Source: Amoebophrya sp. A120
Lineage: Eukaryota > Protista > Dinoflagellata
NCBI GenBank assembly: GCA_905178155.1
Contig: CAJINV010000016.1
Coordinates: 1,749,102 to 1,813,101 of the forward strand
Direction: 5' to 3'
DNA length: 64,000 nt
Shown here: piece by piece, positions 18,477 through 64,000 of the stretch
Layout of the letters: each line of letters starts with the position of its first letter
Position numbering within the stretch: the first letter of the stretch is position 1
Program-made: the position numbers and the translations under genes
The notes under the pieces: model-generated
The model's input: only the letters and a program-made list of their open reading frames with translations
The model's database searches: none
Told to the model about the DNA's origin: nothing

Positions 18477-21400
18477 TTAAAACAGAACCACGACGCCAAA
18501 CAGCAGTGAAAATAGAACTCCCATCATTTTCACCGGGCCTAACATCAGCGAGGGAGACGCAGCTGTTCCCATTCTGCCCACCGCCGAGCTGGTCGTGCTG
18601 GTTGACAGTAGCTGCGCTCCGGAAGTAGATGAACCATTTTCGTTGTAATTCTGAGCTGCGCCGGCCATGGAGGCGCGGACGTAATCGTTGCTGGCAGGAC
18701 TTCTAGACGAGCCGGCGCTTGTACTGCTTGCCGTCGCAGCACTAGAAGAAGATTGATACACAACCGGTACAGTCGGGCTCATTTGCGGCGTGGTTGTGAG
18801 TTGCAGTGTGGCTGTAGTAGGAGAGCCTGCTGCGCCTGTTTTAGGATTACTACCGCCGCCACTCGCTTCCGTCAAACAGCTGTTACAGCTCAATTGAAAA
18901 GCCGGCGCCGTCTATGCATTGGAAACATGTTAAGTATTTGGGTCCTCTGGAAAGGTGCAAGTACATAGCTTGTGAGTGTGATAGCGATTCTCTTTCTCTC
19001 TGTCAGTCACATAAAAAAAAATAAGTAATCTGTCACTGCATGCATGCACGAGTAGAAAAAGGTGTCCTTTCGTGGCCACACTGAGTAGAGAGGATTTCTC
19101 ATCCTACAGAGTGGGCATTGCAAAACTCTCACCATAAAAGCTGTGAAGATGCTACGATCCGCATTCCAGAGTAGCACCTTCTGCCTGGCCTTTCTGGGCG
19201 GTCATGCAAAACCTGCATGACAAACATCTGTAAATTTTCCAGCCCCAAAAGCTACATCTTTGCACTCGCATACCGTCTCCGGTTGCGCGATCTTTTCTCG
19301 CAGCTGCTGCTCCTGCACAAAATCGGCCGCGGCAATCTCGTAATCGATCTTGATCCGGCCAGTGGACGAACTGCTCCCCGCAAGCAAACGAAGCACTAAT
19401 CGATTTTTCTCCAACACGGCCACCTCTTGCAAATTCACCTGCTGTTGCTCCACATCAAGCGTCCCCGCCAAGGCCTCCAGGACGCTCGCGCCGAAAATTT
19501 CCTGCGCCTGCGCATCGCTTTCCATATGGCGCTCTCAACTGTTACATTCTCAACTGCTATATGAATTTGTGATGCAAGAATGGAAAAAGTGAAAGGGGTG
19601 ACCTTGCACGTCTCGCATGACAGATTTGCAACAGATTCTCAGCCTGTTTGGCTCTTTTAGAATTTGTCATGCGAAGCAGCTTCATCATCATCATCATGTA
19701 GTGGACACCCGCTCCCGGCGCCACAGGTCAAGGATCCCCTCCCCGGGGGGTGGGCGAGGAAGCACTTTCGGCGACCTCATCATACAAAAGCCGAGCACTA
19801 CCACGGCAAGTCGCCCCAAGAAAAGTGCCAACCAGTCGGGAGCTACCCACCACACCTGATCGGTACAGCCCGGCCAGCAAGCCGAGCGCGACAGCCCTAC
19901 ATACAGAATGATCCAGGACCCGACCCATTTTACGCCCTACGTTTTTGTTCTCACGGAAGAGACGACGTACCCCTTTGGGTGCAGGGGCGAGACTCTCCCC
20001 TAAGCCGCAGCCCCGCCCAGACAGGGGAGGCTGGACCGTTTGCGCCTTACCTTCGGCACGGACGAAAAAGGCAAGCGAGCGGGCCACAGATGTCAAACCA
20101 TAGACCAGTTGTTTGGCACTGCTGACTGGCAACCCACCTGGGGCGCAGCGACAACTTAAAGGCTTAATTTTCGATTCTGCTTGATCGCGTCGATTCTGCT
20201 TGTAATTTTGCATGACAAACCATGTAACAGTTCAGGATGTAACATTTGAGAACGCCATATTCCAACAGCCCGACATTGGACACGGTAGTTTCCATGGTCC
20301 CCTGGATGCCCGTCTGCGCGCACTGACAGTTCGCCAGCATCTCCTGTTTCTTTTCCTCTTTGAACTGCCGCTTTTCCTCGTCCGACAGGGCTGCAAACGC
20401 GGCTTTTTCCGCCTCTTTCTCCGCCTTTTTCGCCTCGTGTTGTTGCTTTTTTGCCTTCATCTTCTCGAACTTTTCCAACTCCTCCGGAGTCAGTTCGCCG
20501 CTGTTCGCCTTCCGCTCCATATCGGTGAAAAATTTCTCGCGCTCCGCCTCCATCTCGGCCTTTTTCGCTTCCATCTCCGCCTTTTTCGCTTCCATCCCTT
20601 GCTTCTTCTCCTTCATGCGGTCAAATTTCGCCTGTTCCTCGGCCGTCAGCGCGCCGGCGTTGGCTTTTTCCTCCCATTCGGCAAACAGGGCCGCCTTGTC
20701 GGGCTGAGAAGAGCATAGTCGAGATGGAGTTGGATACGTTTACGTGAAGATCATGGGAAAAAACTAACTTTTTTCAACATCTTCCGAGTAAGATTTTTAT
20801 TTAGACAGGAGCAGAAGAAAGTTGCGCTAAACTACACACCAGGAGCAGAAGAAAGTTCCGAGGTGGGCGCACAACCACACACCCAGAGACGCTACGATGT
20901 ATCTACTTTATCCAACGGCGAAAAGTGACCCACGCCCGGCCGCATAGTCGTCAAGGGCTGACAACCCAGGATGGGCCGAAGGTAGTGGCGATATCTATGA
21001 TACATATGATGGTGGCGCAGAATGATGATGGACAGGCGAGAGTTTGACACGGGGCGCAGTTATCCTCTATGCGGGTGGTGGGGCCACTACCACGGGGTGA
21101 GAAGCTATCCTGGAGGCGCGCTCAAGTCGCGAAGCAGCGTAGCAGTAGTGTGCACTTCTAAGCTCCTCGACGAAAAAATAAAAAGTAAAATGTCGGCGTC
21201 ACAACAAGTTCGTAAGAAATCGTTTTCAACTAGCGTAAGACAGGCTCACACAGCACTGCAGCGTAGGAAAAGACCAAGAAGTGGACAACAGCGAAAAAGT
21301 TCAAAAAAGTGAAAATAAAAAAAACAAAACCTTCCTTTTCGACTATATACAGCAAGACTTTAACTTGAAGCTTTCTCTTCACAAGGCCAGCTTTTTACAG

Positions 21401-23837: not shown

Positions 23838-25825
23838 TCATTTCCCGCCCCCAGATTTTGCATCGCTACCGTTCGAAGTTTTTTTCTTCGCCTCGATCTG
23901 ATCGAACGCCGATATCAAATCTTTCTGGTCCTCCGTCAAATTTTCCGGTAATTGCAAGTGGAAGTGCAGCACCAAATTTCCCCGGGAGTCAGCGTTGCTG
24001 TTGCTCATTCCGCCACTGTTCATCATTCCGCTCAGCCTCGTTGGGCCCTTCCCGCGGAGAATCCTGGTGGAATTTGGGTCTTGTAATGCCGGTAAAGTCA
24101 AATTCACCTCCCCCTCATCTAGCGTCGGGATCTTGGTCACGCCGCCTAGCAGCATCTGCTTCAGCGAAATGCCCACGTCCGCGTGCACGTCGTCGTCGAC
24201 GTGTCGGAAAATGTTGTGTTTCTCCACATTGACTACGACAAACAAGTGCCCCCGCGGCCCGCCCCGCTTCCCCGCGTGCCCCTGGCCGCAGAGCCGGAGC
24301 TCCATACCGGGCTTGATTCCCGGCGGAATGTCGATTTCCACGCTGGTCTTCCGGGACTGAACCCCCTCGCCAAAGCAGGTTCGGCATGCTTTTTCCAGAA
24401 TTTCGCCCACGCCGCCGCACTTCGCGCAGGGGAGGCCCATCGACATGATGCCCCTTTCGACCCGGCGCACCCCGGTGCCGTTGCACAAATTGCACTTCAC
24501 CCAGCCCGCGCCCTCCGCCGCGCCGGAGGCCCCGCAGTCGTTGCAGGGGAGCTGTAGCTTGATCGTGGTGGTCCGCCGGGAGCCCTTCATCGCTTCCACG
24601 AAGGGGATATGAGAGTGCACAACTCTCCCTCCCCCTCATTTGTATGGCGTGAACAGCAATGCAAGCACCAGCACACGTGGAGCCTAGGCATGACACATTT
24701 AATATGCGCCTAATCTTAGTACTGTTTGGGCCGCTTCCGGAATTTGTCATGCAAACAGTGCCACAGGACAGCGACTGGATATGGATTTGGGGTTTTGCAT
24801 GACAAAGGAAGGGGAGGGGGAGTTGTGCACTTCATAGGGGATGGAAAGCTCGATCGACGCGTCGTCCCCCCGCGATTGCATCGGCCCGGACGTTATCCAG
24901 TGCAAATATGTCTGGGTCTGAAAACTTGTGATGCAAGGAAGGGAATGGGGAGCGCACTGTAATGCGCTGCTAAGCATGACAGACAAGTTTTCCCATGGTT
25001 CTGAGTTGCGTACTCCGCAAGAGAAACTGCGTTTTTGCATGACAGGCAAGAGGAGTTCTTTGCGGCCACGCAATACAGATTTCAGAGTCACGTCAGGCTA
25101 GCAGAACAAATCTCGCATCCGTCCAGACCCAGACATATTTGCATTTGATACACGTTCGGGAAGCGGAGTTTCCGCGGTGCATGCGGCTGGCCATTTTCCC
25201 GAAAATATTGGAAAATTCGGAGTACATCTGACTGGGGTCCTGCCAATCGGAATCCGGATCGGCATGGTGATGTTGAGCCGAGGATATGGAGAGAAAAAAG
25301 TTTGTCACAGTCACTAACTTGCTGGCTCTGCATTACAATTTTTTTTTGGCATCACAGCTTCTCGTTGTATTGCAGAAACACTAGGAAAAACCCCTATGAA
25401 GTTGGTCTGTGATGCATTTTTACGCATGACAGAGAAAATTTTGCATTGCAAGCATGCGCATGAGTGATCGTGACGAACTTTTTTTGTTTGATAGAGGAAC
25501 TTGAAGCACTACTAGTACCACCACTGCTCCCACTCGCAAAGGAGGAGGAACTAGTACTGCCCATCGCCGCGTCGAGTTGTCTCCGCTTCCTTGGGTCGGT
25601 CAAAACCGAGTAGGCGTCGGTGATCTTCGCCATTCGCGCAGCGGAGTTCGGGTCGTTTTTGTTCAAATCCGGGTGGTTTTGCTTGGCGAGCTCTCTGTAT
25701 CTGGCTTTCACCTCGGCAGCCGAGGCGGTTCGCTGGAGGCCCAGGAGCTTGTAGGGGTCGAGGGTTTGCTGGGCATGCGCCGCAGAGGAACTACTGCCTC
25801 CGCCGGTGGAAAAAAATCTTCGCAT
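23838..25825 (-). CDS. dnaJ: Type I DnaJ/Hsp40 chaperone, probably mitochondrial (4 exons)
   Basis: J-domain with HPD, four CxxCxGxG motifs, C-terminal domain, MRRFFST N-terminus; removing 24608-24836 restores IELSIPFVEAMKG. Confidence 0.92.
24608..24836. mobile_element. Introner family C
   Basis: TIRs, DR GGGGA. Confidence 0.92.
24894..25150. mobile_element. Introner family A
   Basis: TIRs, DR GACGT/CACGT. Confidence 0.9.
25285..25493. mobile_element. Introner family H
   Basis: AAAAAGTTTGTCACAGTCACT...AGTGATCGTGACGAACTTTTT, DR GAGGA. Confidence 0.9.
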
Positions 25826-26832
25826 GATGGTAGGAAAAGTGCAGGCTTAGTTTTTGAGAATGAGAGGTAGAAAAAATTAAGGGACGTTGACCACTGCCAC
25901 TGCAGAAGAAGAACAACCATAGATATGATCTTGATTCAAGATTTCTACGTCATCCCAGCGATCGAGAAAAAAAAATGGCACATCGTGACGCGTAACATCT
26001 AAACGACGTGGCGCTTTCGAGCGTCATGCGCCGGGCACAAGCCGCATCCATAGTCCACGATAGCATCATCATCAACTTGGAAGAGCTGCCGATCTTGCAG
26101 AAGCAGACCACACAGAAACTCAGGCGATCGACAGAAGCAGGAAGCAAACGCACACAAGACACACACTGAGCCGACAACTTTTTCTCGCCTGCTTATTTTC
26201 AAAAAAGCACAATAAGATCTTCTGGACGAGCAGCGAGGATCGGAGATCGTGAGGACGAGCACCGTGATCGACGTTGACAGCCCGCCGATGGGGCGAAAGT
26301 ACACCGAATAAAACAACAAGCAATAATCCATGAACAGCCTCAGCCACGACCACTCTTCAAACGTTGGACGTAGCTGCGGTGTAGCTGCTAGAGGGGTAGA
26401 AACAAAAACCCACTCGGCAGCACTACAGCGATTGTAGTTTTGAAATTTCAAACGAACTTCGAGTTCGAACCTGTTGTCTGGCAGTTGTACACAATAAAAT
26501 CACGATGATCCTACTCGTCGATAGCATTAGCACGTTGTCGCTGCAGATAAAATACTTACTGTAAAAGTACGACGAACCGTCGCGGAAGAAAGAACTCAGC
26601 GTGGCCCTGAGCTCCAGCATCTTCGGCCGGTTAGATGGTAGTGCTTCTCTTAAACAAGTGCTGGTTGTGCTCAAAGAATTATCACGTTATGCGTCATCAA
26701 CTAATTGTAATTTAAACAGTTACAGCGATCTGTGGAGAAAAATAATAATAGAAACGTCGACCCAAAATCTTCGGCGCTGATAAACAGCAACAGAGATCAG
26801 TATCACGACCAGCACACAGTGCTTCTCCATCA

Positions 26833-35206: not shown

Positions 35207-36770
35207 TTACAGGTTGTTGTGGCGGTTATCTCCGCCCTCCTGGTCGAATCCCCCCTGCGAGTGCAGCTGTGTCGTTGCGTCTTCGATTTCCATATGAACT
35301 GCAAAAGTATCGCACTTCTCGTATAAATGCATTACAAATTTCCCCAGCATGAGAAATAAAATTTGTCATGCGGATTTACCGTAAGAAAAAAATTTGTAAT
35401 GCATGACTGCAATTACTACGAGTGCGATACTTTTGCACAGGATATTCCATGGCCAGAAAGTGGATGGCCTGCTGGGCGGAGACAAAAGTCGCTTGTTCGT
35501 AATTTATCCTCTCTTCCGCCCACCGTTTGAGCTATCCTGAGGAAAAACGTCCCCGCCCCAGAGTTGTCATGCAGATTTGCAATGCCGAGGACATTTGTGA
35601 TGCGCATACCCATGAGAGGCATTTCCCATTGCGTTTTAGAACTTGTAATGCTGTAAACAGGATAAGGAGACGGATTTGTTATGCGGCTTCCCTTGCTAAG
35701 CTGCACGACAGTACAGCCTGCAACTTGTCATGCGTGACTCCCAAAACTCCTAGGTTTGTGTTGCAAAATCCCCATCTTGACTATGTTGGGGTGGGGACGT
35801 TTTTACACAGGATATGAGCCGCTCGCTGTTCGTCTCTTCTGCGTGCTCGGACATGTAGTACTGTTCTTTTTCTAACTCCTTCATGTGCTCCTTCTCCGCC
35901 TCAAACTGCCGCACGTTATCCCGGGGTAAAATCCCCCCTCCCCATATCGAAAAGGTACGTCGCAGAAGATTTGCAATGCTGATTTGCGACCACAAATGCT
36001 CTCTATCTTGCAAAAAGGCAACTCCACAGGCTCCGCCGCATTATGCAGGCGGTTTGTGATGCTGTTTGGCCTACAGCGCAGACGTTTCTCATGCTAAGCG
36101 CCTAGGCCACAACCTCTCTACTCAGGCTTGATGTGGGCCTGCAGTCCTCTTCAGCAAGACAAATCTGATTTGTGTACACAAATCCAGCAACACAAACTTC
36201 CGCTTCAATATGGGGAGGGGGGATTTTTCATTTTGATACACGTGCGCACCTCGTCCGGACGCGTCGTTCAGTTTCTTCTGCCGGGTCTCGTCGTGCAAAA
36301 ACACGTCCATCATATCAACTGCAAAAGCGTCTGGGTCTGGAAGAGTGCCAGACTTGTCATGCAGGTGTTCCGTTACCCATGAGGTCTGGTATCTAGGACA
36401 TAGCATGACAGATTCTGTGAGAGTTCTACCATGCCTATCCTGCATGAGAAACTGCCTCTCGACTAGGTCAAAAGTGGACAGCTTTTGGTAATCACGCAAC
36501 ACAGATTTTTACATGATTCAGATTTAGCATGACAAGTTGCTGTGTTCCAGACCCAGACATTTTTGCATGTGATACATCATCCACTTGGCCAATTTCGCAT
36601 CCTCGGCCCGCCGCCTTCTCTTCTCAAACTCGTTCACCTCCGCCTCCATGAGCTGGATTTTCTTCTCCAAAAGATGCTTTTCCCCCTCCGGAGCAGCGGC
36701 AGAAGAAGATGTGGTAGAATTGTTGTTTCCCAAACCGTTATTCAGCCACGACCACGGACGTTCATTCCCT
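35207..36770 (-). CDS. Hypothetical coiled-coil protein, at least 5 short exons (5' end unresolved)
   Basis: Removing introners gives a frame ending ...LKRWAEERINYEQ...AMEIEDATTQ...NNL*. Confidence 0.65.
35293..35444. mobile_element. Introner family B
   Basis: TIRs, DR TTCCA. Confidence 0.9.
35533..35814. mobile_element. Introner family F
   Basis: AAAAACGTCCCC...GGGGACGTTTTT, DR TGAGC. Confidence 0.9.
35917..36238. mobile_element. Introner family E
   Basis: TIRs, DR CACGT. Confidence 0.9.
36313..36574. mobile_element. Introner family A
   Basis: TIRs, DR CATCA. Confidence 0.92.
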
Positions 36771-37228
36771 AAAAATTAACCACCCCCATCCTATTTTTCA
36801 TGCAAAACATGTATAAAGTTCTGTTTTTGTCATGCAAGAAATGGATGGGGATGGTGAATTTTCAGGGAGTAACGTTTTTCTTGCGCTAACAAACGGTCGT
36901 ACTCCCGCATCAGTTGCGAGATTTCAAATCCTTTTTTGCTGTAGAGCACCAACTTCTGCCGGGACTCCAGGTAAGCGTTCCAGTGTTTCGCACACCGCTT
37001 GGCCACACGATAGAGGTACCAACCCAGTTCTGCGGACCCTTCGTATCCCAGAGAAAAAAGCTAGCTCATCTTCACGTTTGTATCAATCAATGCAAAAGTG
37101 AATAAAAACACACACAAAACTCTGTCTTGCATAGCCCTGAGACAATCATGCTAGTATGGGCCCGGCCTCCCTTCTCGATTTTGTGACTGTGAGTGTATTC
37201 AGTTAAGTAATACAAAGGTGAAAATATG

Positions 37229-40200
37229 CTACATTTTTTTGTGAAATACTTCTTCCGGGACATTGAGCGGTTCTTCAAAGTCCTCGTCTGAATTCAGTTC
37301 GCCTACAGCAACGGCCCCTCCGCTCGCCGCCCTCTCTCTATTGCTTTTGCTTCGCTTCCACTTAGAGATTTTTTTCCGCACCTCCTCGCGCACTTGATAA
37401 GTTTTCGCGCCTTCCAGCATCGAGTCCGCGATGTGTTCGGGATTCGCCATATGGCGCTCTCAAACGTTACATTCATCTCAAGAACTGCTGCATAATTTGT
37501 CATGCAAAACTCTCATCAGCATCTACACCATGAAGCTGCTACTTCACATGACAAATTTCCGAAGGGCCAAACAGCATCTAGATCTGTGCCAAACCCGTAC
37601 TGCAAGAGGCGCAATCTTCCCCCTTTCACTCTTGCTGTTTTTGCATCACAAATTCATGTGACCGTTGAGAATGTAATGTTTGAGAACTCCATACGGCAAA
37701 CGCAGCAGGTACATTTCCAGCCAGTCCCCGTAGTCCACCGGGGCCTCCACCCCGGGTTCCACCTCATCACTCAGCAGCGGCGAGGCAAACTCTTGCTCGC
37801 AGACCAGCCGGGGCAGGTACATCTCGTTTTTATTCACCCTCATCATGCCGCCGTCGGCAGATTCTGTTCCTCGGGGCTGAAACGCGGTGGACAGCAACGA
37901 AGGTTCTTCCACTTCCTCGTCCTTGTCGGGGCAGTCTGCGTCGCGACCCGGAACGCAGTCATCGTCGTCGTGGTGGTCTACTCTGGTTAATTCCTTTGAA
38001 GAAGATGTAGTTGCCGGCGTGGTACCGGCGACGAGGGGCGACATCTTCTCGCCCCGCACGGTTTCTTGGTTTACTACGACGTTACCCACATCTTCGTTGG
38101 CCTGTTGGTCGCTTTCGTGCCGTCGCTCGCTCCTCGCCCGCCGCGCGAGGCCCGCGACTTCGGTTTGGGTCACGGAATCGACCCCAATGTACTGAAAGTA
38201 CTCCATGGGGAGGTCGACAAAGTCCCGCAACCGCTGCAGTTTGGAGCTGTACCCGTAGAAAGCCTTGATCACGTTCAGGGACTCCTTTTCCGACCCGCGC
38301 CAGTAGTGCGTCACCTTCCCCACGTTCGGTTTCTTGTCCGCCACCGTGACCATGGTCCCGCAGACCGGCGGTTTCTTGTCGACCAACCACGACCCGGCAC
38401 ACACCCCGGCAACCTCGGTCTTTGCGTGGTCCACAATCAAGTCGTCAGTCTCGAACAGACATCCGTCCTCGTGCCCGCAGATCAGGTCGTACATGCTGCA
38501 GTACATCTTCGACTCCTTCTTGGTGTAGGCGGTGTCGAAGAGTTTTTTGCCCAGGTTGGAAATATCAAATGCAAAAATGTCTGGGTCTGGAAGATTGCGA
38601 GATTTGTCATGCTTGTCTGGCATGGCGAAAAAGTTTGTGATGCGTGTCCAAGAAGAGACCCTTTTGCCCGTCATGCAAAAACGCAGTTTCTTATGCGAAA
38701 AACAGAACACAAAGAAGCGCAGACGTTTCTCATGCTTGGCTGTGCATTACAGAGCATTCGCTATTCCCAACACAGCATTACAAGTTTCCAGACGCCCCAG
38801 ACATTTTTGCAATTGATAGGAAAACGGGTTCTGCGAAACCCAATCGGTGAAGCCCTCCACTTGCTCCATATCCGACCCTTCGTTCGTCGCGCACCCGGAC
38901 ACGATACACCGCGGTTCTCGTGTAGGATCATGTTGATCTTCTTGCTCAGCCTTTATTGTATCTTTTTCTTCCTTATCCTGTGCAAAAGTATCGTACTCGT
39001 ATAAATTATGCATAACAAAGTTCCTCAGCATGAGAAATAAAATTTGTAATGCTGATTACCTTAGGGAAAAGATTTGTAATGCATGATTGCAATACGAGTA
39101 CGATACTTTTGCACAGGATATTCCTTCCTCCCCTCTACAACACCGGCGGCCTCTTCCTCGAACCGCAATACCATGTGGATGTCCGTCTGTTTCCGCACAT
39201 CCATATCAAATACAAAAATGTCTGGGTTTGTCATACTAGAAGAATGCCAGATTTGTCATGCTAGTCTGGCATGACTCGAGAATCTGTGTTGCATAGGCAC
39301 GAAAAAGCCCTGCTACCTGTCATACAAAGACGCAGTTTGCCATGCGGAATACGTAAGAGATGGCAGCCAAAAAATTTGTCATGCATAGCTTTGTATTGCA
39401 GTGCGTCTATCATTCATTTTTAGCATTACAAGTTTCATCCAGTTCCAGACCCAGACATATTTGCATTTGATAATCCATTTCCTCCTGCGATTGCGCGTGC
39501 GTGTACTCACCATCCCGCCTGTGGTGCATATGCCGTTGAAAACAAGTACCGCCACCGTACTAGTGAGACTTGGTATTGGTTGAACACTTTGTTCAACAAC
39601 AATAAACCTGGAAGTCATCTTCAATCATATAGATTAAGGGATACAAAATGGATGATCTCTGTCATGCCGAGTCACTGGCCGACGTTATCTTCCCGTTCTA
39701 GTATATACAACGAGTGCGATACTTTCTTTGCATTTGATAGTGCAGAACGTGCAGCAATTTCCTTTCCGCGGTGCTTTCCTGCAAGCGTTTGTTGCTGGTC
39801 TTGAGCCCGTGTTTTGCTTTCTCTTCTTCTTCCGGGGGGAGAAGTCGGTACTGTCCCTGTTGTGGGTCCAGCCAATCACTGCTGGTGATCCGGGACTTTA
39901 CCTCGTTGAACACCGTGTCGCACGGGTTCTTTTTTGACAAAGAATCCTCGTTGACGCCCCCGCGCCGCGGTTTTACTTTCCAGATGATGCGGCACTGCTT
40001 CGTACAGTAGTCGTTGTGCGGACAGATCTCTTCCGCAAGTTTGTCCACCGTTTTTTTCTGGAACGGCCACCATTTTTTGTTCAGTCGCTTCATCGTAGAA
40101 GTTTTCTTAGTTCCAGTATCAAGTTTTTCTTCTTTCGTCCTCAGTTGCTGCTCCACGAAGGAAGATGATGACCCTACTGATGAAATCGGTTTAATATTGT

Positions 40201-43200
40201 TCAACTTCAACCTTTCTCTCGCATGCTTTTTTTCCAACACTCTCTTTACCTTTTTCCGCCAGGTGTGTTTCAACCGGTTTCTTTCCAGCTTTTCAACAAA
40301 GGAGAAGGACTGTCTTGCTGTGCGGAAAGGTTGCGGTTCGAGATGTTGCGGGTCCTCGTCCTGCTGCTGCCGTTGCTGCTGCTCTGTTCTTCCCCCGAAA
40401 GAAGTAGTAGACCTCGTAGAAGTTCTTTTTGTTGTCGCTTTATCCAGTATCCTTTCGATGTTTTTCGCCATTTTGTTGTGATACTGTTGTTCCTCTTCTA
40501 CTGTCAACTTGTTCAACAACATCGTGCTTTCCTCACTTTCATCCTTTATTTCGGCAAACGAAGAGGAAGAAGCAGCTGCTGAAATCATCGCCGGGACATC
40601 TCTTTGTGTGATTCCGTGCTTGAGTCGGCGCTCCGGAGCAGGCTTCTTTTTGTTTTTCCATTTCCTGTACCGCCCAAGGAGCGAATTACTAGTATATCGC
40701 TTCTCGGACTCTTCCACCTCCGCCTTCATTGCAGAGTCCGTCGCTCGTTGCGCCACCTCTGCGTCCGAACTTGTAGCTGATGTTGCGTTGTAGAATTTTT
40801 GAAACCGCTCCTCTTGCCGCAAAATCCTGGCGACGGAGCTCACTTTTAGCTCTAAACTCGCGAAGAACCTCCCGATCCGCGCGTTGTCGACCTCGTGCGC
40901 CAAAACGTTCGCCTTGTCGCGCTTTTTTTCTCGACCGGATGTGGCCGGATCGAAGTCATCTGTCACTGCGAAGAACGTGTCCCTCTTGAACACCCCGAAT
41001 TCTTGTATGACAGTGCACAACCCCCCCTCATTTGTAATGCAAAGTACCAAGCTCGCACCTTGCTCGCAAGCACTGCTAGCATGACAAATTTCGGAACCTC
41101 AAATAGTACTACAATCCGCATGCAGATTTGTCATGCGAACGCCCCTCTTCTGCTGTGGCTTGTGTTGCTGCTCATGCCATGCAACTGAGGGGGAGGGGGA
41201 GTTCTTGTGCACTCTCATATCTTGCTCCGTGATGTCAAAAACGGACTGCAGCATGTCCGTCACCAGCCGAGTCAAAATCGGCACGGCGCGGATCACCTGG
41301 TTCTGCAAGTCTTCAAACCGCTCGTAGAGCTGGTTAAACCCGGACTTCAATTTCTTCCAGGCGGAGCGCACGAACATGTGCCAGGAGGGCTGCATCTTGT
41401 ACTCGTACACGTCCTTTTGCAGGGGAAACATGTGCACCAGGTGGTTACAGGCGAGCAGGAACTGGTATTCCGCATCCGACCCGCGGGACAGATACCGCAT
41501 GAGAAACAGCGTTTTCTCCCCCCGGGTCAACTTGGGCAGCCGTTTTTCCCGAATGACAGCATTAGAATCCTTCTTATACCTCCGTAAAAGTTCCGGCTGG
41601 ATCACCTTCTCCGCCAAACTCTGGACGTAAATGTCCTGGGTATCGAAGAAAAAAAGTTCGTCACGATCACTCATGCGCATTCTTGCAACACAAAATTGTT
41701 TGTCATGCGTAAATATGCATCACAGCCAAACTTCATTGGGGATTTCCCTAGTGTTTCTGCAATACAAGGAAAGTTTGTGATGCCGAGAAAATTTGTAATG
41801 CAAAACATGCACGTTAGTGACTGTGACGAACTTTTTCCTTTCCATACTGAGTCGCCACCAGGTAGTAAATCATCACCAGTTTCGTTGCGGCCGCCTCGAT
41901 CACGTTTTCCGTTACGTAGGCGCCGAACCGGTGCCGCTTCTTCCAGTATGCATTGCAAATATGTCTGGATCTGAAAGGATGCAAGATTTGTCATGCTTGT
42001 CTGGCATGACTGAAGAGTTTGTGATGCGTGTCCAAGAAGAGACTCTCTTGCTTGTCATGCAAATAACGCAGTTTGTCGTGCGGAAAGCGCAACACTAAGC
42101 AGCGTCAATGCTTCTCATGCTTGGCTTTGCATTACAAAGAATTCACTATTCACAACTCAGCACTACAAGTTTCCAGACCCAGACATATTTGCATTTGATA
42201 TCCAGAACCGGGTCCCGATATTTTTCAGCCTTTCCCGCTCCTCTTCTTCGTATTCCACGCCAAACACGGCCGCGGCGGTGCTCATATGAACTGCAAAAGT
42301 ATCGCACTCGTATAAATGCATTACAAATTTCCTCAGCATGAGAAATAAAATTTGTAATGCGGATTTACCTTAGCAAAAGGATTTGTAATGCATGATTGCA
42401 ATACGAGTACGATACTTTTGCACGGGATAGCTCACCTGTCGGTACAGCTTTTTCACGGGGTTGTACTTGTTGTGGATGTGCCGCATGTACTTCGTCATGC
42501 GCTATTACGACGAAAAATGCCCCCACCTCCAAAGTTGCAAAAGTTGGTGATGCGAAGCTTCCAAATGAAAACCAAACCTTTTTGTGATGCATGAAAGGAG
42601 TATGAATCTTTCTGATGCAGACTCTAGGCGTCTATCGCATCGCTTGCATGACAAGCGCCGCTCTTGTTGGGATCTTTTGCAATACAGTTTTTTGCTATTC
42701 ATATTGGAAATCTGTGATGCTGATAGATGCAAGAGGGCGAGTGTTTCATTTGGAAAGGTTTGCAATACAAATGCTCCCAAGTTCGGGGTTGGGGGCATTT
42801 TTCATTGGAATATGCGCTTCACTTGGTTCGCGCCCGTGTCCCACACCTGCGCCATAAAAGCGGGCATTTTGAAGTACCGCTTGGCCCACCCAATGATGCC
42901 GTTGGTCGTCGTCCGGCCCAGCTGCACGTCGCGCTCCGTGTCCTTGCGCTTGCCCCCCTTGTATTACAATGAAAAACGCCCCCTGCTCCCCGTATCGAAA
43001 AAATGCTGCATTTGAGTTAGTACACGATTGGACTTGTATTGCTAGCAGGCCATCAAGAGACGCAGCTGCTGCATGAGTTCCTGCAGGCAATTGGTCATCC
43101 TGTTTCCCACTTCCAGTTGCCTCCTGTCATGCTGAAGATGTAACACTTTGTTCCCACGCCAGCCAGCACTACAGTCCGCACCTTTTTTTGCCTTCTAGCA

Positions 43201-46200
43201 TGACAAAGCTGATCTGGGACCACAAATCTGCATCACAGATTTCCGTTTTGATATGGGGAGGGGGTAATATAAATATTTTTCTTCTTGATAACTTGGTGAC
43301 GAACTCCTTCAGTTTCTCTGACCGCTTGGAGGGTTTCCAGGCCAGGTACCGCCAAACCGTACTGCCGTTCTCCACCACATCCTCTAGAGCTAAGGCCCCA
43401 AAGATAGCCATCGCAAATTGCTGGGTGTGCCGGACCAGTTCGGTCTGCCCCATATCAAATGTAAAAATGTCTGGGTCTGGAAAAGTGTAGACTTGTCATG
43501 CAGATTTTTCATGACCCATGAGGTCTGGAATGCGGGACTTAGCATGACAGACTCTGCGAGGTCTCTGCCATGCCTATCATGCATGAGAAACTCCTCTCCA
43601 ACTTGGTCAAAAGTGTGCAGCTTTTGGTACTCATGCAACACAGATTTTCGCATGCTTCAGATTTACCATGACAAGTTGAAATCTTCCAGACCCAGACATT
43701 TTTACATATGATACCCCAAAGCGGTGAGCAACGCGGAGCTTTATCAAATGCAAATATGTCTGGGTCTGGAAGAATGCAAACTTGTGCTGCGCATTCTATA
43801 ACACACAAGAATCTCTCATGCATAGGCAGCAAAAGCTGCCCACTTTCTGTCACCAAAGTCGGGCATTTGTGATGCAAATTCGGCATTGCGGAAGCTTCTC
43901 GAAACCTGTGATGCTAGAGCTTCCATGCCAGCCCTTCTGTGTCATGCAGCAGCAGCGTGACTCTTCCAGACCCAGACATATTTGCATTTGATATGCTTGT
44001 GCTCGTGCCAATGTGCACCCCGTAAATCAGGTGGCCGATGGCGAAAAGTGCGGGCAAAATCTCGATGACCAGCAGGTGAAACATGTGGTACGTCAGAAAC
44101 AGGGAACTCAACACCATGCCCGTACAGACGAGCGCAGTGGCCCAGCCCTTGAACACGACCGGTTGGGAGGCGAAGGTGGAGATCAAACGCATGTCCTCGA
44201 GGAAAGAAACGAGAAAATTCTCCTTGTCCTTTTGCCAGCCAAACTGGATCACGTTTAAGTGGTGCCTGCCCTTCACCCCGGCCGCCCCCTGCTCCAGGCC
44301 GAAGTACTGGTCCTTCGTGTTCTGAAAAATCACCTTCCAGGGCGGCATCGCCCGGATCCGGGAGATGTGCCGCAGATCGCTGGTGGCCGCATCCGGGTCG
44401 TCTCTCGCTTCCATCAGAGCGCGGTCCTCCTCCCGTGCTTCTTCCCCGTAAATGGCGAGCGACGTTTGTTTTAGTGCCCAATCCTTGTCATTCTGCGACA
44501 CGTCTTGCACTGCTCCGCTAGCACCGTATAATTGCACGGCTTCGGCGTCCATACTGTTGCTGTTCCTCCCCGCGATATAATTACCCAATACGTCTATCTC
44601 CATTTCATCTCGCTCCTTTGAGGATAATTGCAATGGCATCATCTCCTGCGCTTGGACCTCCTGTTCTCTCCCCACCGCAGACTCGAGTCGGTGCGCACAA
44701 TTCAACTCGGCGAAGTCGACTTTCTCCGTCATTTCAGCTAGTTGTGTCCGCAAAGAGTCGATCTCCTGGTTTTTCTGTAAAAGAATTTCTTCCGACTTCT
44801 TCCCGCAAGCCACCATTGCTTTTTTCAAGGCAAGATTCGTTTCCTTCTGCAACAGATTGCTGTACAGGGATCTCAGCTGGGTTACTTCCTCGTGTTCTTC
44901 TTGATCGTCGTTTTCATTTTCCGCTCCGCTTTTCGTTTTCCCTGTCGTAGGAAGAGCTTGATTTTCATTTGAAACAACGTTGAGGATTTCGTCCCTCTCT
45001 TCCTCCAAAACTGTTTCCAGATCGTGTTCGGCTTCCAGCTGATAATTCCCGGCCTGTTCCTCCAGTTCCTGTTGCAACTTTTTGATGCCCTGGTGCAGCG
45101 CGGCGTGCCTCGCTTCAGCCGCAGCGGTTCTACTCTCGGTACTTTGTTGTTCTCCGTTCTGCTCTACTTCCGCCAATCGCAATTTCTCCTCCAACTGGCT
45201 CAGCTTCTCCTCAAAACCGGCAATCAGTTGCTGAGCTTTTTCCCTTTCCCTTTCCCGCACCTCCTCTTCCCTTTTCTGGTGCTTTTCTTGCATTTTTTGG
45301 ATTTTAAACGCCAATCCGGTTTTCGTTTCGTCTATCTTCTTCTTGAAGTCAAATTGCAACTTTTTTATCTTTTCCTGCTGCTTCACCTCTAACTCGCCTT
45401 TCTGCTTTTCCAACTCTGCGTCGCACTGCGCTTGTTCTGCTTGGAGCTGAACATTGTTGGATTCTACCAACTCCTTTTCCCTTTGATTCAACCTCTTCCC
45501 ATCTTCTTTCACACTTGTTCGCAATTCATTTTCAAACTCTTTGCTCATCGTCTCGTATCGTTTGTGCACTTCCTGCACCTCCGCCTGCAGCGAGTGCAAT
45601 TCGCTGTTCCGGTCTATTGCTTCTTTTAGCTCTTCTATTTGGTCCTCCTTCATGCCAATCTCGTTTCGCAGTTTCTTCATCACTACTTGGAGTTGCTCGT
45701 TCTCTTGCTGCAAAACGTGCACCAGTTCCTGCAAAGAGTGCGGGTCCATGGCATTGATAACATTGTAGTTCGTCGTGGTTTCTAGAATGTTCTTCTCCCC
45801 AACAGAGTTGTATCCGGTGATTGGCACGTCGAAGTGCGACCCTCGGTAGTTTTCGTTCGCACCTGCCGCCGAAACTCGGTCGACAAACTGGCCTTGAGCT
45901 GGTCTCTGTACGCGAACGAGGTTGGGGTGGAGCCGTTGTTGCATCTTTGACGTCCTCTGCAGGTAGCTACTATTTCCGTCGTTCTTGTTGTCAGAGATGA
46001 TATTTGAATTCGAATTCTTCTCCTCGAAATCGTACTTCTCTTCTTGAAGCACGGAAGAAGTACTAGAAGAAGTAGCAAACGCCGCCCCCTCGGTAGTAGA
46101 TGTTGGCGCAGCTTGTCTACTTGTTGCCGCGCCTCTCGATGCACTTCTTGATGCACTACTATCTTCCAGGCCCGGTAGAAGTTCGTCTTGTTGTGCAGCC

Positions 46201-47060
46201 AGTTCAACATCACCATCATTGTCCAGCACCGGTATCGCCGGCGAGTCCGAGTGTTCGTTCTCATGATCGTCGTTTTCCTCTTTTTTTGCGCCGTCATCTC
46301 CATATCAAATGTAAAAATGTGTGGGTCTGGAAGAATGCATGTTTGTCATGCTTGTCTGGCATGACTCTTAAATCTGTCATGCACGTTGCCCAAGAGCCGC
46401 GTTTTTCTGTCATGCGTAGTAGTAGTAGTAGTAGCACCATTTAACTCCTGGCGGGTTGGCGTTAGAACAGATTTAGCCTCTGCCAATATCTGGGCGTTAG
46501 AACAGATTTAGCCTGTCATGCAGAATAGGCAACACCTACAAGCTCAGAAATTTGTCATGCTGAGCCAGCACTTGTGGCCTCCTCATACTACGCCACTCAG
46601 CATCACAACTTTCCAGACCCAGACATTTTTGCATTTGACACTCCAGGCGACGCAGCGAAAGGAGCCGCATGATTCCCTCGCTCGTTCAGCCGCGCGTCGG
46701 CAATTGGTATATCAAATGTCAAAATGTCTGGGTCTGGAAACTTGTGATGCTAAAATGTGCATGATGAAAACACTTCCGAATGCAGTCCGGCATGACAATT
46801 TCCCAAAACGCTGTCTCATAGGCAATCCGCATGAGAAACTGCGTTTTTGCATGACAAAAGAGGCTGCGGATTTTGTTGGTTATGCAATACAGATTTTCTA
46901 GGTATGGAAAGCTAGCATTACAAGTTCCAACCTTCCAGACCCAGACATTTTTACAATCCATATGGTAGAAACAGGAACCACGCGGTCTCCAGGAAACAAA
47001 GGACGAGAACAGACAATTTTCTTGCCGTAGCGCGGCTGGCGCTGGCGCTGGCCTGGTATG
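37229..47060 (-). CDS. Very large hypothetical protein (coiled coil plus hydrophobic segments, probable signal peptide), split by 15 introners
   Basis: Checked junctions are in frame: SQNPFSNLGK, GTSTSSALLTALGQTEL, HVLHHRRDGE, SPGDDGAKK. Start codon not resolved. Confidence 0.7.
37450..37693. mobile_element. Introner family G
   Basis: TIRs, DR CGCCA/CGGCA. Confidence 0.9.
38563..38818. mobile_element. Introner family A
   Basis: TIRs, DR GGAAA. Confidence 0.92.
38974..39120. mobile_element. Introner family B
   Basis: TIRs, DR TTCCT. Confidence 0.92.
39204..39472. mobile_element. Introner family A
   Basis: TIRs, DR ATCCA. Confidence 0.9.
39529..39739. mobile_element. Highly degenerate introner family B
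   Basis: TAT...ATA ends, perfect DR GTGCA, removal restores frame. Confidence 0.75.
41006..41219. mobile_element. Introner family C
   Basis: TIRs, DR TCTTG. Confidence 0.9.
41641..41846. mobile_element. Introner family H
   Basis: Reverse orientation of the 25285 copy, DR CTGGG/CTGAG. Confidence 0.9.
41947..42200. mobile_element. Introner family A
   Basis: TIRs, DR TCCAG. Confidence 0.92.
42285..42429. mobile_element. Introner family B
   Basis: TIRs, DR GCTCA. Confidence 0.92.
42503..42812. mobile_element. Introner family D
   Basis: GAAAAATGCCCCCA...TGGGGGCATTTTTC, DR TGCGC. Confidence 0.92.
42962..43290. mobile_element. Introner family E
   Basis: TIRs (AT-rich insertion in the right TIR), DR CCTTG/ACTTG. 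Confidence 0.85.
43453..43713. mobile_element. Introner family A
   Basis: TIRs, DR CCCCA. Confidence 0.92.
43742..43993. mobile_element. Introner family A
   Basis: TIRs, DR AGCTT/TGCTT. Confidence 0.9.
46303..46640. mobile_element. Introner family A with nested (TAG)n insertion
   Basis: TIRs, DR CTCCA, right end GACA; longer than sister copy 61918. Confidence 0.9.
46416..46512 (-). mobile_element. Short (CTA)n-tailed insertion, probable retroelement fragment
   Basis: (TAG)6 plus about 80 bp containing a duplicated GGCGTTAGAACAGATTTAGCCT, flanked by CTGTCATGC. Confidence 0.55.
46710..46962. mobile_element. Introner family A
   Basis: TIRs, DR TGGTA. Confidence 0.9.
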
Positions 47061-58048: not shown

Positions 58049-59277
58049 TTTTCCTTTTCGATCCGTAATCTGGTTTTAGTTTTGCTAATGCTATAAGTAT
58101 TCCACAATATTTTACAAGATATTTCTATATACACAGGCTGTATGTATCGTCCTTCTCAACTAGAAGAGATAATTCAAAATTTGGTAGACGAACACAGAAA
58201 AGTCAAAAAATGGTGCCTTAGTTCAGGTGGTCTGCGCAACACCACGCAGTGATATTTCGTTTTTCTGTACAAGTCAACAAAAGAGTCTATGTGTCGTGAA
58301 AGAAAGCTAACTTTAGAAGCGGAGATCTTGATCTATAGTTGTAAAAAGAGTTCAATATCTTCACAATTAGGATAGGTTACATTCGTCGTGTGCCGATGAA
58401 AGAAGCGACCGATCATCGAACGGAATCGCGTGCTACCCTGTTCCGAAAATTGTTGCGTACAAGACAATAATATGGCAGGGGACACCGTGCTGCCAGGAGG
58501 TCAAAAACTTACTAGTAGGACCATGCTACACTACAGTTCTTGCACCTCGTTTTGTTCTTCAAAACGACAGGACCAAGCATTCAGACGGATCTTCCACCGG
58601 ATCAAGCTCCTGAGCTTCAGACGATCATCTTGGTTTTTTGTGTCGCGTTTAGTACCTATGCAATTTTCATATTTCCTTGACAAATTCCATCGTCTAGACC
58701 GGATCTCGATGGTCATCTTCTCGGGGTGTTCATGTGAGCCTTGAAGTTTTCAACCAGAGCCACATCGATCTTTTTCTCATTTCTCTCCTCCTCGGATTCG
58801 GAATAAATAATGGTCCAGATGATGAACCAGAAGTTAGAACTTATGCCTCGACATTAATATTGCCACTTCTTTGCGGATGAAATTTACACCCAAGCAAGTG
58901 TCGTCCCACCTGCTTTGGTGTGTAAGTCTTGTGAGATGAAGAACGGAACTGCATCAAGGATCCGGTTGGTTCGGTCCAGAAAATTTTCATCAAACACTAT
59001 AGTACACTTGCATTTGTATAGTGATGAATTGGACGGGTGCATTTTCCGCCATCACCGATGCGTGCTAGAAGCACGCGCTCTCAATTTTTGCCGCGCTGTT
59101 GACTTCAACCGCGTTTCCTTCTTGAGGAGAGAATATATCAAATTCAGATAGAAGTCGACGGAGAAAAGTTGTAAAGTGGATTCTCCTTGTCTGCTCCACC
59201 GCTCGAAGAGCTTCAAGGTCTTCGAGTCGTGGTCTGCTTTTTTTTCCCTCTTGTAAAAGTAAATGAACGCTCATCGC

Positions 59278-62200
59278 TCACGTATCCCCCATGTCCACAT
59301 CGTCGTCTCCACCAACTCCAGCACGCAATTCTGCGTTTTCCTCCTCATCAGCCGACTGCGCGTCATCGTCCGATGGTGTCTGCATTTCGTGATCCTCATC
59401 TTCGCTCACGACGTTCTGATCGTTTCCCTGCTCCTGCTCGGCTTGCTCCTCGTCGGCCTCCTCGTTGTCCCGGATTTCCTGAAAAATATCGCGCATGCGG
59501 TCATTCGTGATGTCCCCGCTGAACAGAATCCCCCGCAACCGCCCGATCTGTCCCTTCCACTTGAGGTAAAGTTTTCCCGGAAAGATTTCCGACTTCTCAT
59601 TCACGTCTTTTTTCCCCGAAAACTCCGAGTGCGGCAAATCCAGGGTGATGACGTCGTGGAAATATGGATTGCAAAAATGTCTGGGTCTGGAAACCTGTAA
59701 TGCTGCGCTGGGAATAATGAATGCTCTGTAATGCACAGCCAAGCATGAGAAATATCTGCGCTTCTTTGTGTTGCGTTTTTCGCATGACAAACTGCGTTTT
59801 TGCATGACAACCAAAAGGGTCTCTTCTTGGACACGCATCGCAAACTTTATTTTGGTCATGCCAGACAAGCATGACAAATCTCGCATTCTTCCAGACCCAG
59901 ACATTTTTGCAATGCATAGGAAATATTCCCCGACGAAATACCGACTACCACCGAACACGAAGATCTGCCCCGTCGTCGGGACAAAACACGCCGCGAAGTG
60001 CGAGCGGCGCAGGGATTTAGTATCACACGACCGGTGGAAGATGGTTTCCATTTTTTCCGAACTGGTCCACTGTTTGGTGACCGTGTCGAACACGAACGCG
60101 TTTCTTGCCAAATCCGAGTACCAGCAGGGCCACCCGGTCTCTTCCGATTCGTCCATCAACTTTTGAAACGTGATCCCCTCCTCGCCGATGTATCGCGAGG
60201 AAAAATGCCCCCACCCCCAAAGTTGCAAAAATCTGTGATGCGAAGTGTTCAAATGAAAAATTTTTGTCATGCATGAAAGGAGTATGAACCTTTCTGATGC
60301 AGAGCCTAGGCGTGTGTCGCATCGCTTGCATGACAAGCGCCGCTCTTGCTGGTATGTTTTGCAATACACGATCGGAAATCTGTGATGCTGATAGATGCAA
60401 GCGGGCGGATGTTTCATTTGGAAAGGTTTGCAATACAAATGCTCTCACGTTTGGGGGTGGGGGCATTTTTCCTTTCAATACGATGTTCTGCGGCTTCGTA
60501 CCGCCGAAGTAGAGCAGTTCCCGGCCGGTAGCAACCAGCTGCCCGGCGGTCACCCAGTCGGGGTACGTGAGGTCCGGCACCAGGCGGCCGAACGCGCTGT
60601 TGAAGAAGTTTCGGAAGCGGCTTGTCGTGGTAGGTTGCTGTTGCGCGGAAGCTCCTGTAGACCCTGCGGTCGCGCCAGAACCGCGCCCATTTTCTATTTG
60701 CGCCCCAGCTGATGTTCTTGATGTTGTACTACTACTTCTCTCATCCCCGGCCGGAAACAGCCGGTCGGTCGTTGGGGTAAGCGAAATCTTCTCCCAGATG
60801 TACACTGGTCCTGCGCCCTCAGTAGACACTTCGTCGCTCATCGTCATCTTCCCTGGAGCAGGTCGTGCCTCGAAAGTGCTGCTGCTGGTGTAGTTGTAGT
60901 AGTCGTAGTGGTCGTCCTCTCCGTGGTCTACAACTTCGCCAAAATTACTGTTAAAACCCGAACTACCAGTAGAAGTCGCAGCTCCTGCACTACTGCTCTG
61001 TGAAAGTTGTCCACCACCTCGGTTCCTATAATTTGATGCCAAATGCAAACAGTACAAGTCCTGATACTGGCGCACCGTCTCTTCCGAATTTGTTTTTTTG
61101 AAGTCCCTATCAACTGCAAAAATGTCTGGGTCTGGAAGGTTCTGAGACCTGTCATGCATGTTTTGCATGACCCAGCATGTCTGTAATGCACGACCTAGCA
61201 TCACTAATTTTTAGAGGGTTTCCTGATGCCTACTCCGCATGACAAAAGCCCTCCCCGCGTAGCACAAACTCGACTCCTCTTGCTGGTCATGCAATACAGA
61301 CTATTTTAGAGTCCAAAGTTAGCATCACAAGTTTTAACCTTCCAGACCCAGACACTTTTGCATTTGATAGTCCCACAAGCTCCCCCCGGTGATCAGCCAC
61401 CTCCCGTTCGTCGCTTCCGTCGAAGCGTACCATACTCGCGGCGCCGGGATGTCTCCGGCCTGCTGTTCCTTCTTCCATTGCTTCGTCAACAGGTTGAAGC
61501 TCCACAGGTCGTTCCTGCACCCGTTGTCGCGCGTGAGAGTTCCGTCTGCCTGGGCAATTCTGTTGTTCCCGATTGTCAGCTCGCGTCCGCCGAAAATGAA
61601 AAATTTGTCCCGGAACACCGTCCCACGCTGGCCTTGCCGCGGCTTCGGGAAATCTTCGCCCGGAATGCCCTGCGGCTGACACGGGCTGAGGTTCGGCTGG
61701 AACGACACGGACCCGCTGCCATTCGCCCTCCGGAGGGCAGCTTGCTCTGCAGAAGTTGCACCAGAGCGAGCATTGCGGTTAATGCCAGTAAAAGCTGGTT
61801 GGTTGTTCACCTCCGTGGTTGTAATTCCCCATAATCTCTCCCATCTTTTTTCCCGAATATCGAACACGCTGACGCAGTTGTTGATCTTCGATTGGTCAAT
61901 CGGACTGCCGCCGCCGATATCAAATGCAAAAATGTCTGGGTCTGGAAGAATGCATGTTTGTCATGCTTGTCTGGCAGGACTCTTAAATCTGTCATGAACG
62001 TTGCCCAACAAGAGCCCCGCTTTTCTGTCATGCAGAAACGCAGTCTGTCATGCAGAATAGGCAACACCTAGAGGCTCCAAAACTTGTCATGCTGGGCCAG
62101 CACTTGTGGCCTCCTGATGATACGCCACCCAGCATCACAAATTTCCCGACCCAGACATATTTGCATTTGATAGCCGAAAAACACCACCTTCCCGCGCCAC

Positions 62201-64000
62201 ACGCTGCTGGCCGCGCCCATGATCTGTGGGTGGGGCGTGCCGTGGAGAAACTGGTCCGTGGCAGGGTCTTTCAAACCGTAGTTGACCGTCTCGACCACTT
62301 TGACCGGGGTTTGCTTCACGTCAATCTCGTACACGAACGGCAGCTATGGATTGCAACAGTGTCTGAGTCTGGAAGATTCTAATCTTGTAATGCTGTCTCT
62401 GGATTCTAAAAAAATGCGTATTGCATGACCAGCAAGAGCACTCCAGTTTGTGCTATGCGGAGAGGGCATTTCTCATGCCGTAGAGGCATCGCAAAGTAGT
62501 CCTCTAAAAATATGTGATGCTAGGGCATGCATCACAGACATCATTGGTCATGCAAAATATGCATGACAAACCTGGCAATCTTCCAGACCCAGACATTTGC
62601 ATTGGATAGCAGCTCCTTGGGCGTCGCGCCCCCGATCCGGTCCGCGTAGTAATTTCCGGCGAAGGCCTATTACCGTGAAAAATGCCCCCACCCCCAAAGT
62701 TGCAATAATTTGTGATGCTACGTTTCCAAATGAAAACTTTTTGTCATGCATGAAAGGAGTGTGAATCTTTGTGATGCAGGGTCTAGGCGTATATAGCATT
62801 GCTTGCATGACAAGCGCCGCTCTTGCTGGGATCTGTCGCAATACACATCTTCGCTATTCACGATTGGAGATCTGTGATGCTGCTAGATGCAAGAGGGCGA
62901 GTGTTTCTGTCGGAAAGGTTTGCAATGCAAATGCTCCCAAGTTCGGAGGTGGGGGCGTTTTTCATTGTGATAAGGCCAGCAACCGCGTGCCCCCGAGCCA
63001 GTGCAAGTGTGGTGCGTGGCCCGCGAAAAAATCCTTGGCGGCGCCCGTCTCGAAGTCGTCAATGCCCGTTGGCTGCAGAAGCTCCTCGCGCATGCGGATC
63101 CTCGGCGGGGGTTGGACTGCTCGTTCTGCAAAGCGTGCACTTGATGTAGTCTTGCGATTAGTTTCATGATCGCCCCGTCCTCCGTGTTGGTCTGTGATTC
63201 CACCTTGCTCCATGATGTTGGAATTATCTCTTGCACCAAAGTTAGAAGACGACGACGATGAGCCACCTCCTGTGGCGCCTATATATGATGAACCTGGATT
63301 GTTGTTGTGGATATCCGCACTGGCATTTTGCGCACGATCCGCCTTCTGTACAAAACTGGAAGCTTGTTCAGCTAGGTTGGCGTCCTGATCCTGTGTAAAA
63401 ACTGCGCCATTTATCTTTCGGGTCGACGAAGAGGACGCAGATCCACCTCCGACTTGCGGGCCGACGTGGTTTATCGCCGGAGCAGAAGACAAATCCTCCT
63501 TGGTCGCGTCAACATCATCCGCTAGGTGTTTTGGGCGTTTGGACGCCGGCTGCTGCTGCAGTTGTACCTGGCTCGACACCCTGCCTTCCCCTGGCGCGAA
63601 AGCGAACCCCAACCCGGAGCTCGAACTACTAGACGCGTCGCTGCGCGCCGTCAACATCGACGAAGCGGCGGATGAACTACCGCTACCTGATATCCAAGAA
63701 CAAAACTGTGTAAGTGTAACTTTGTGTTGCAGAAAATGCAAAACTGTTACACTTGTCATGCTGGACATGCATCATAGGCTCTTTTCGTACGTGTTTTCAA
63801 GTACTAGCTATGCATGACAGGTTTTCTGTTTCATGCAGAGCAAACTTGTGATGCTATTCCACCAAGAAACTTACACTTACACAGTTTTTTTCTTGCATAC
63901 CTGAGGGTCTGGAGCCGATATCCCGCTGGTTCTTATCGTTCAAGCTTGCGTCCGCTTCCTCCAAATCGGCAACAATTTCGGCGATGTACGCCGGATCGTA
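59278..64000 (-). CDS. Kelch-repeat beta-propeller protein, 5' end outside the window, split by 7 introners
   Basis: Repeated VVFFG, FFIFGG, WLITGG, LYFGG, FVFGG blades with NDLWSFNLLTKQW; acidic tail; YFVGEYF|HDVITLDL junction in frame. Confidence 0.85.
59663..59918. mobile_element. Introner family A
   Basis: TIRs, DR GGAAA. Confidence 0.92.
60191..60480. mobile_element. Introner family D
   Basis: TIRs, DR CGATG. Confidence 0.92.
61108..61369. mobile_element. Introner family A
   Basis: TIRs, DR GTCCC. Confidence 0.92.
61918..62172. mobile_element. Introner family A
   Basis: TIRs, DR GCCGA. Confidence 0.92.
62345..62608. mobile_element. Introner family A
   Basis: TIRs, DR GCAGC. Confidence 0.9.
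62668..62972. mobile_element. Introner family D
   Basis: TIRs, DR AGGCC. Confidence 0.92.
63691..63899. mobile_element. Introner family I (single copy here)
   Basis: AAAACTGTGTAAGTGTAA...TTACACTTACACAGTTTT TIR, DR CCTGA. Confidence 0.9.

Follow-up and report, generated by a model that had tools for sequence, protein, structure and literature searches.

The introners of Amoebophrya sp. A120 share an internal word, YYTGTVWTGC, which is conserved in 13 families and placed on a lattice of 10.45 bp. We consider it probable, at about 0.6, that the word marks sites for a shared protein whose bending or wrapping of the DNA joins the ends of an element for transposition. Binding by a protein, a role for it in transposition, and its nature as either the DNA-binding domain of a transposase or an architectural host factor are what we infer.

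Introners and their host genes

The window, by which we mean the whole 64-kb stretch of DNA that was analysed, is occupied by long genes, co-oriented on the minus strand and interrupted by about 49 short introners with ends TAT..ATA and a 5-bp target duplication. A curated set holds 43 of these elements, and six were added later (one partial, two with uncertain edges). Excision of the 43, each with one copy of its duplication, gives open frames of 2022, 2253, 948, 751 and 432 codons. The first of these frames belongs to a minus-strand host gene with approximate limits 37230–47060, extending leftwards, and results from removal of 15 elements with one duplication each; the gene is also represented by an RNA-like contig (run X3, record 9). 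A Pfam search on 16 ORFs of the window returned DnaJ, DAO and Kelch only, and no transposase. The DnaJ gene (23838–25846, minus strand) is interrupted by three introners, a Kelch-repeat gene lies near 59000–64000 and an FAD-oxidoreductase near 885–1883. The window also contains a tandem array at 7316–7508, with a 15-bp unit in 13.3 copies, and two near-identical introners of one family 250 bp apart (9472–9690 and 9943–10159), possibly a local duplication or a recent local jump. One cargo, which begins with a (CAT)n run and is truncated to various lengths in the manner of a 5′-truncated retroelement, is found at 19682–20180, 874–1029 and 2010–2054, and at 4372–4557 of locus L017 (the same as L018); all four insertions seen sit within introners, of at least three families.

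Further copies were obtained by scanning metagenomes with a family-independent end pattern, which gave at least 151 stretches and 148 loci, all but two of the listed rows coming from one assembly. Filtering for exact TAT..ATA ends, a duplication of at least 4/5 and at least 19/30 TIR (terminal inverted repeat) matches yielded 328 elements from these loci, among the matches listed, and the same filter recovers 35 of the 43 window elements. No element is present in two loci, L043 and L060, whose matches are regarded as accidental. The duplication is 5/5 in 278 locus elements and 4/5, the limit set by the filter, in 50. Over their length, 278 of the 328 match window copies at about 72–98% identity and are therefore of the same lineage, not independent species; all copies come from one lineage. 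Elements matching the search pattern (134) were flagged as ascertained. Thirteen families take in 335 of 371 elements, with 36 left out (singletons, a pair and length outliers); consensuses were built from all members, and seven families have no ascertained member. No autonomous element or protein was found in the window or in the 148 loci, in which long TIR-bounded stretches are nested or adjacent elements without long ORFs, and in a scan of viral contigs neither the main TIR nor a two-site end pattern had any match.

Every end consists of TAT(C/G), six variable bases, an A-rich block at positions 11–15 and a box of about 15 bp that differs between families (74 ends, selected for TAT). The TIRs had been called unrelated in the first-pass annotation, which is not borne out, since all share TAT(C/G)-N6-A-tract, and the families look anciently related. 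At TIR positions 4–7, complementarity is no higher than between random end pairs from the same family, and within TIRs G-U and A-C pairs are equally common (130:122 and 206:203). In Fam3, subfamilies with homologous interiors have different TIR boxes, and the box at positions 16–30 has changed in concert at both ends (0.89 own, 0.59 across subfamilies), which keeps a terminal stem plausible for removal, or else homogenisation of the ends. Single copies often carry insertions of 2–8 bp between the A-tract and the family box (many loci, for example L059, L065, L072 and L076). A 109-bp element at 36763–36871 has the ends CAT and GTA rather than TAT and ATA and is still absent from the contig.

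Anatomy of one copy

The introner at 38563–38818 (256 bp) belongs to the 253-bp subtype of Fam0, the largest family, and lies inside a minus-strand gene; it was delimited by a TIR/TSD scan and family alignment, and length arithmetic indicates its removal in record 9 of run X3. Its ends, TATC..GATA, are flanked by GGAAA duplications at 38558–38562 and 38819–38823 (plus strand, from the same scan). On the left, the end common to all families (38563–38577, plus strand; TATC, six variable bases and A-tract, from the profile of 74 ends and a position-wise test) is followed by the family-specific TIR box at positions 16–30 (38578–38592, plus strand; family alignments). Five motif sites lie on the plus strand. 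Sites 1 (38603–38612, core 43 bp from the left end) and 2 (38634–38643, 31 bp after site 1) are exact; site 3 (38667–38676) is degenerate, with three mismatches to the 10-mer, and passes the weight matrix; sites 4 (38687–38696) and 5 (38726–38735) have one mismatch each, site 4 falling under the matrix threshold in this copy and being present in the subfamily consensus. Site 5 forms a convergent pair with site 6 (38744–38753) on the minus strand, and site 7 (38775–38784, also minus) follows 31 bp from site 6 with its core 34 bp from the right end; both have one mismatch. The right TIR (38789–38818, minus strand; end profile) is made up of the family box with a small insertion, the A-tract and TATC.

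The 11 sites listed in the first-pass annotation are all in place: four are exact TTTGTNATGC (38603, 38634, 39043 and 39073), six have one mismatch (38687, 38726, 38744, 38775, 63721 and 63752) and 38667 has three; the gaps it gave between them are also right. Those outside this copy fall in a Fam2 introner (its family B; 38974–39120, 147 bp), whose four sites all point outwards, and in a Fam3 introner (its family I; 63691–63899), both delimited by TIR/TSD scan and family alignment.

A word shared by all families

Exact TTTGTNATGC sites number 75 in the window, against 0.87 ± 0.94 in 100 shuffles, and 73 of the 75 lie inside the 49 annotated elements. The density is 5.7 per kb inside and 0.04 per kb outside, a ratio that is slightly circular because five of the six late-added elements were noticed through motif hits. 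An exact site is present in 38 of the 49 elements, and YYTGTVWTGC, a looser word than the one first proposed, in 48, which bears out the claim that the motif studs every family and is rare in exons. Each of the 13 family consensuses carries two to nine sites; together these 66 sites give YYTGTVWTGCW, with a central base that is C, A or G and never T.

A helical lattice

A single reference point within the motif places both orientations on one lattice, with a best period of 10.45 bp (95% range 8.1–10.55 in a bootstrap over families) and a mean cosine of 0.54 (129 site pairs on the 13 consensuses). The highest of 300 random placements reached 0.30, and at a period of 11.0 the signal is −0.04; the periodicity that the first-pass annotation had asked for above shuffled controls is thus present above random placement. 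Same-direction pairs peak at 10.5 bp in phase, and opposite-direction pairs are offset by half a turn, start to start. Gaps of 31–33 bp account for 20 of 42 consecutive same-direction gaps and occur in 11 of the 13 families. The lattice survives dropping Fam0, and also keeping one family per TIR type, and when the gaps are collapsed to 15 distinct classes they are still phased (Rayleigh p = 0.008). With the parameters fixed, it reappears at 0.44 (0/2000) in 19 non-ascertained elements that the alignments did not include, and all seven families with no pattern-ascertained member show it (0.46–0.94). Fam1 (48 copies), to which the introner at 35533–35814 belongs, has its sites all in one direction, inserts both ways in genes and lacks an overall lattice (−0.03); Fam8 shows a weak one (0.23). 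Some gaps (18, 39 and 49 bp) miss the lattice by roughly a quarter of a turn, and element lengths show no phasing (p = 0.66). The families are not independent lineages, because site layouts are shared between them.

Within the spacers, G/C dinucleotides are out of phase with the lattice (p = 0.003) and AA/TT weakly in phase (p = 0.04), a pattern as in bent DNA. The distance from the end to the first site differs between related layouts by 9–11 bp, one turn, in four comparisons: 34 versus 43 (Fam0 subtypes), 34 versus 44 (Fam5/7), 35 versus 46 (Fam2/9) and 45 versus 56 (Fam6/4). Among individual copies, 25 of 130 ends have moved, mostly by 1–6 bp and off phase.

Removal from transcripts

Contigs of runs X3–X6 (one study, presumed RNA) skip exactly the element plus 5 at eight joints, and the 5234-nt contig of X3 record 9 accounts for 19 elements by exact length arithmetic (795, 279, 0 and 567 nt). 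The junctions have no fixed dinucleotides, and hence no fixed GT-AG, and the duplication has no base preference. At three mismatched duplications (37450, 41641 and 43742) the bases retained by the contig, in the direction of the RNA, come from the upstream copy at positions 2 and 3 and from the downstream one at position 5. In these three cases, read from piece ends, the cut falls within the duplication, behind its third or fourth base. Two decayed introners, 37044–37248 and 39529–39739, have one recognisable site each (end profile, matrix scan) and are still removed precisely, as are the elements at 37450 and 39204, whose first site is shifted by 5–8 bp; this holds for the dominant contig, since contigs show the dominant form only and a reduced efficiency of removal would not show. 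With duplication mismatch as the age clock, the motif has decayed to the same degree whether the duplication is perfect or imperfect (0.094 versus 0.090), and this clock gives no sign that selection on the motif ends once a copy has inserted.

The continued removal of off-phase copies, together with the whole-turn shifts between families, suggests that selection acts while the elements transpose. As an alternative, the lattice could be coated by a chromatin or other DNA-binding protein of the host, which would mark each element for cleavage of the nascent RNA at the element's ends; the motif would then serve removal and perhaps also jumping. Such a protein would draw on the same DNA-phase evidence and would fit one motif in all families despite differing TIR boxes, the junctions and duplications described above and, in passages of PMC7789003, a U1 snRNA not found in the organism. 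We nevertheless regard it as unlikely, given the precise removal of one-site and shifted elements, the off-phase shifts of single copies set against the shifts of 9–11 bp between related families, and the lack of nucleosome-like spacing among 153 exon gaps. The original proposal that a protein marks introners therefore stands for the shared candidate protein and is weakened as regards marking for removal. It is also quite unlikely that each introner is wrapped by the same protein on a phased scaffold of DNA, the protein both mobilising it and guiding its removal without normal splice signals; if true, the DNA itself would carry the code by which introns are recognised, and the transposon would have a novel means of rendering itself harmless.

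Conservation of the motif

Short duplications might have built a common ancestral element from which the motif is simply inherited, with no present function. The end structure and site layouts common to the families would agree with such a history, in which the 31–33 bp gap could be an old repeat unit. It is largely refuted by the conservation of the core while the central base of the word and the spacers drift. With sites called on one half of the copies and measured on the non-ascertained copies of the other half, identity is 0.87 in the core, 0.68 in the spacer and 0.63 at the central V base. In all 11 families tested the core is better conserved than the spacer (p = 0.001), two families having been dropped for too few copies and several halves containing only two or three sequences. 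A free base within a conserved word argues against an alignment artefact, and motif cores change less than spacers, contrary to the equal decay that the first reading had named as counter-evidence. Phasing also persists after removal of gaps near multiples of 31.5 (mean cosine 0.48, n = 81; 0/3000 random), and the insertions between related layouts are whole turns, so that inheritance without function is very unlikely.

DNA or RNA

For gene strand at the loci, a codon model was fitted to the open frames of the window, and 276 of its 294 calls are consistent within loci; window elements were all set to minus. No family has a significant orientation bias. The one-directional Fam1 inserts 17:27 relative to the transcript, and the pattern end is the 3′ end in 53 elements and the 5′ end in 51; the non-ascertained copies give 54:52. 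Taken by itself, the window has a surplus of the GCAUNACAA reading on the sense strand (25 versus 8 elements, p = 0.005), which is not replicated in the larger set, and mismatches per site are 0.64 versus 0.61 for the two RNA readings.

The window excess could be taken to mean that the motif acts on single-stranded RNA or DNA, with GCAUNAC as a branch-point-like signal or with motif and reverse motif as hairpin stems. In many copies GCAUNAC places a UNAC core, which may be compared with the branch-point consensus, 30–45 nt from the 3′ end. The signal is not strand-specific near the 3′ splice site (the 53 versus 51 ends and the Fam1 ratio above), and a branch point was rejected. As for hairpins, the interiors give more stable folds than shuffled sequence on either strand (mean z about −2.4), whole-element folds give z of −5.2 and −6.9, and pooled Fam0 dyads look complementary at V (239 versus 157 expected over all dyads). 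The dyad excess vanishes within subfamilies (146 versus 144.6 of 310) and reflects subfamily structure. Moreover, the V bases fail to match in 13 of the 26 dyads on the consensuses, on the sense strand G-U pairs are as common as A-C pairs (250:228), the period is 10.45 and not the 11 of RNA helices, and an Rfam search of the window gave no matches. Action on a single strand is therefore hardly probable.

The motif most likely binds protein on double-stranded DNA during transposition, not splicing, because the 10.45-bp lattice is strand-blind in the larger set, the dyads show no hairpin covariation, and one-site and shifted copies are still removed. The suggestion of phased double-stranded sites for one shared protein is well supported by the lattice in both orientations, its absence at 11 bp, the free central base and the fact that the larger set shows no strand bias; the protein itself is putative.

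It is extremely unlikely that a lattice-reading excisase cuts the elements out of DNA at one stage of the life cycle, as happens to the internal eliminated sequences of ciliates. Removal of the element with exactly one duplication and the joins inside three mismatched duplications would be compatible with it, as would the fact that runs X3–X6 are RNA by presumption. Against it, contigs of the DNA-like run X1 cross whole elements at single-copy depth (36547–37520 and 39447–41106), although rare DNA joins may exist beyond the 15 of 966 X1 joints listed; only part of the genes is covered by X3–X6, removal extends to decayed copies, and RNA-seq published in passages of PMC7789003 supports the elements as introns.

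Proposed mechanism

In the transposition scaffold that we favour, a shared protein would bind the sites along one face of the helix and bend the element of 110–320 bp so that both ends meet in one complex, which would then cut at TAT(C/G) and insert with a 5-bp stagger. The protein may be a transposase or a host factor. Copies with a broken lattice would stop spreading and remain removable, and it is likely the ends (TIR stem and TAT(C/G)-N6-A-tract), not the motif, on which removal from RNA depends. The 5-bp duplication and the published family 38 (below) suggest an integrase-like DDE enzyme. The phased double-stranded motif offers a defined bait for the protein and a sensitive probe for autonomous elements and old decayed introners, and gives genome-wide predictions that separate jumping signals from splicing signals.

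Comparison with known systems

Accessory-site scaffolds are known from bacterial recombination and have been shown experimentally, among them the Fis enhancer of Hin and Gin, lambda attP and the Mu enhancer. By analogy, the introner lattice would resemble them in its helically phased sites and in a protein, here presumed to bind, that bends DNA to join ends. MITEs with subterminal transposase-binding repeats, such as those of hAT Ac/Ds and CACTA En/Spm, have motifs near their ends in both orientations. Like such MITEs, the introners are short and non-coding, with TIRs, a target duplication and internal motif repeats running both ways; unlike them, they have one motif across differing TIR boxes, a lattice over the whole interior and removal from transcripts.

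According to passages of Bao et al. 2010 (PMC2836005), Ginger elements end in TGTNR with TIRs of 40–270 bp, and TDD-4 and TDD-5 make 5-bp duplications. Compared with Ginger2/TDD, the 5-bp duplication here fits TDD-4/5 only, the Ginger duplication being otherwise 4 bp. The ends here are TAT(C/G), with TIRs of about 30 bp, and no enzyme was seen; because the Ginger termini TGTNR are absent, membership in Ginger is not claimed. Family 38 of A120 is entered in the dataset of PMC12130899 as Ginger-like, with a 5-bp TSD and TA/TA termini, and passages of the paper note that it lacks Ginger termini. The nonconventional introns of euglenids, in passages of PMC11282704, are likewise bounded by TIRs, flanked by duplications, derived from MITEs and removed by a mechanism that is not known; a common phased internal motif is not mentioned in those passages.

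Introners of A120 are treated by Farhat et al. 2021 (PMC7789003) and Gozashti et al. 2025 (PMC12130899). Our elements have all the marks of this type: a TAT/A-tract inverted repeat, a direct repeat, removal without fixed GT-AG and repeated families. Passages of PMC7789003 give ends of TAT, seven variable bases and AAA, direct repeats of 3–5 nt, non-canonical junctions and about 240 nt, as here, and the family lengths of 106, 149, 208, 234, 252–260, 278, 305 and 320 in passages of both papers match ours. To speak of an undescribed system, as was done at first, thus overstates the case, since the elements match introners described in 2021 in passages of PMC7789003. Our elements go beyond the published accounts, as far as passages of PMC7789003 and PMC12130899 go, in the common internal motif, the phasing and TIR positions 4–7 that are not kept complementary. 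No report of a shared internal motif or phasing was found in passages of these two papers, although figures S19 and S25 of PMC7789003 may show the motif, or in passages of PMC9860276, PMC2836005, PMC11282704, PMC11453091 and bioRxiv 10.1101/2020.10.14.339549, theses and subscription papers lying outside this search. A120 has tens of thousands of non-canonical introns to spread and to remove, and passages of PMC7789003 report that neither a transposase nor a U1 snRNA was found in it. The introners are known, and the shared phased lattice appears to be new relative to the literature searched; judging by the lattice, the many families may form a single radiation, with one factor serving them all.
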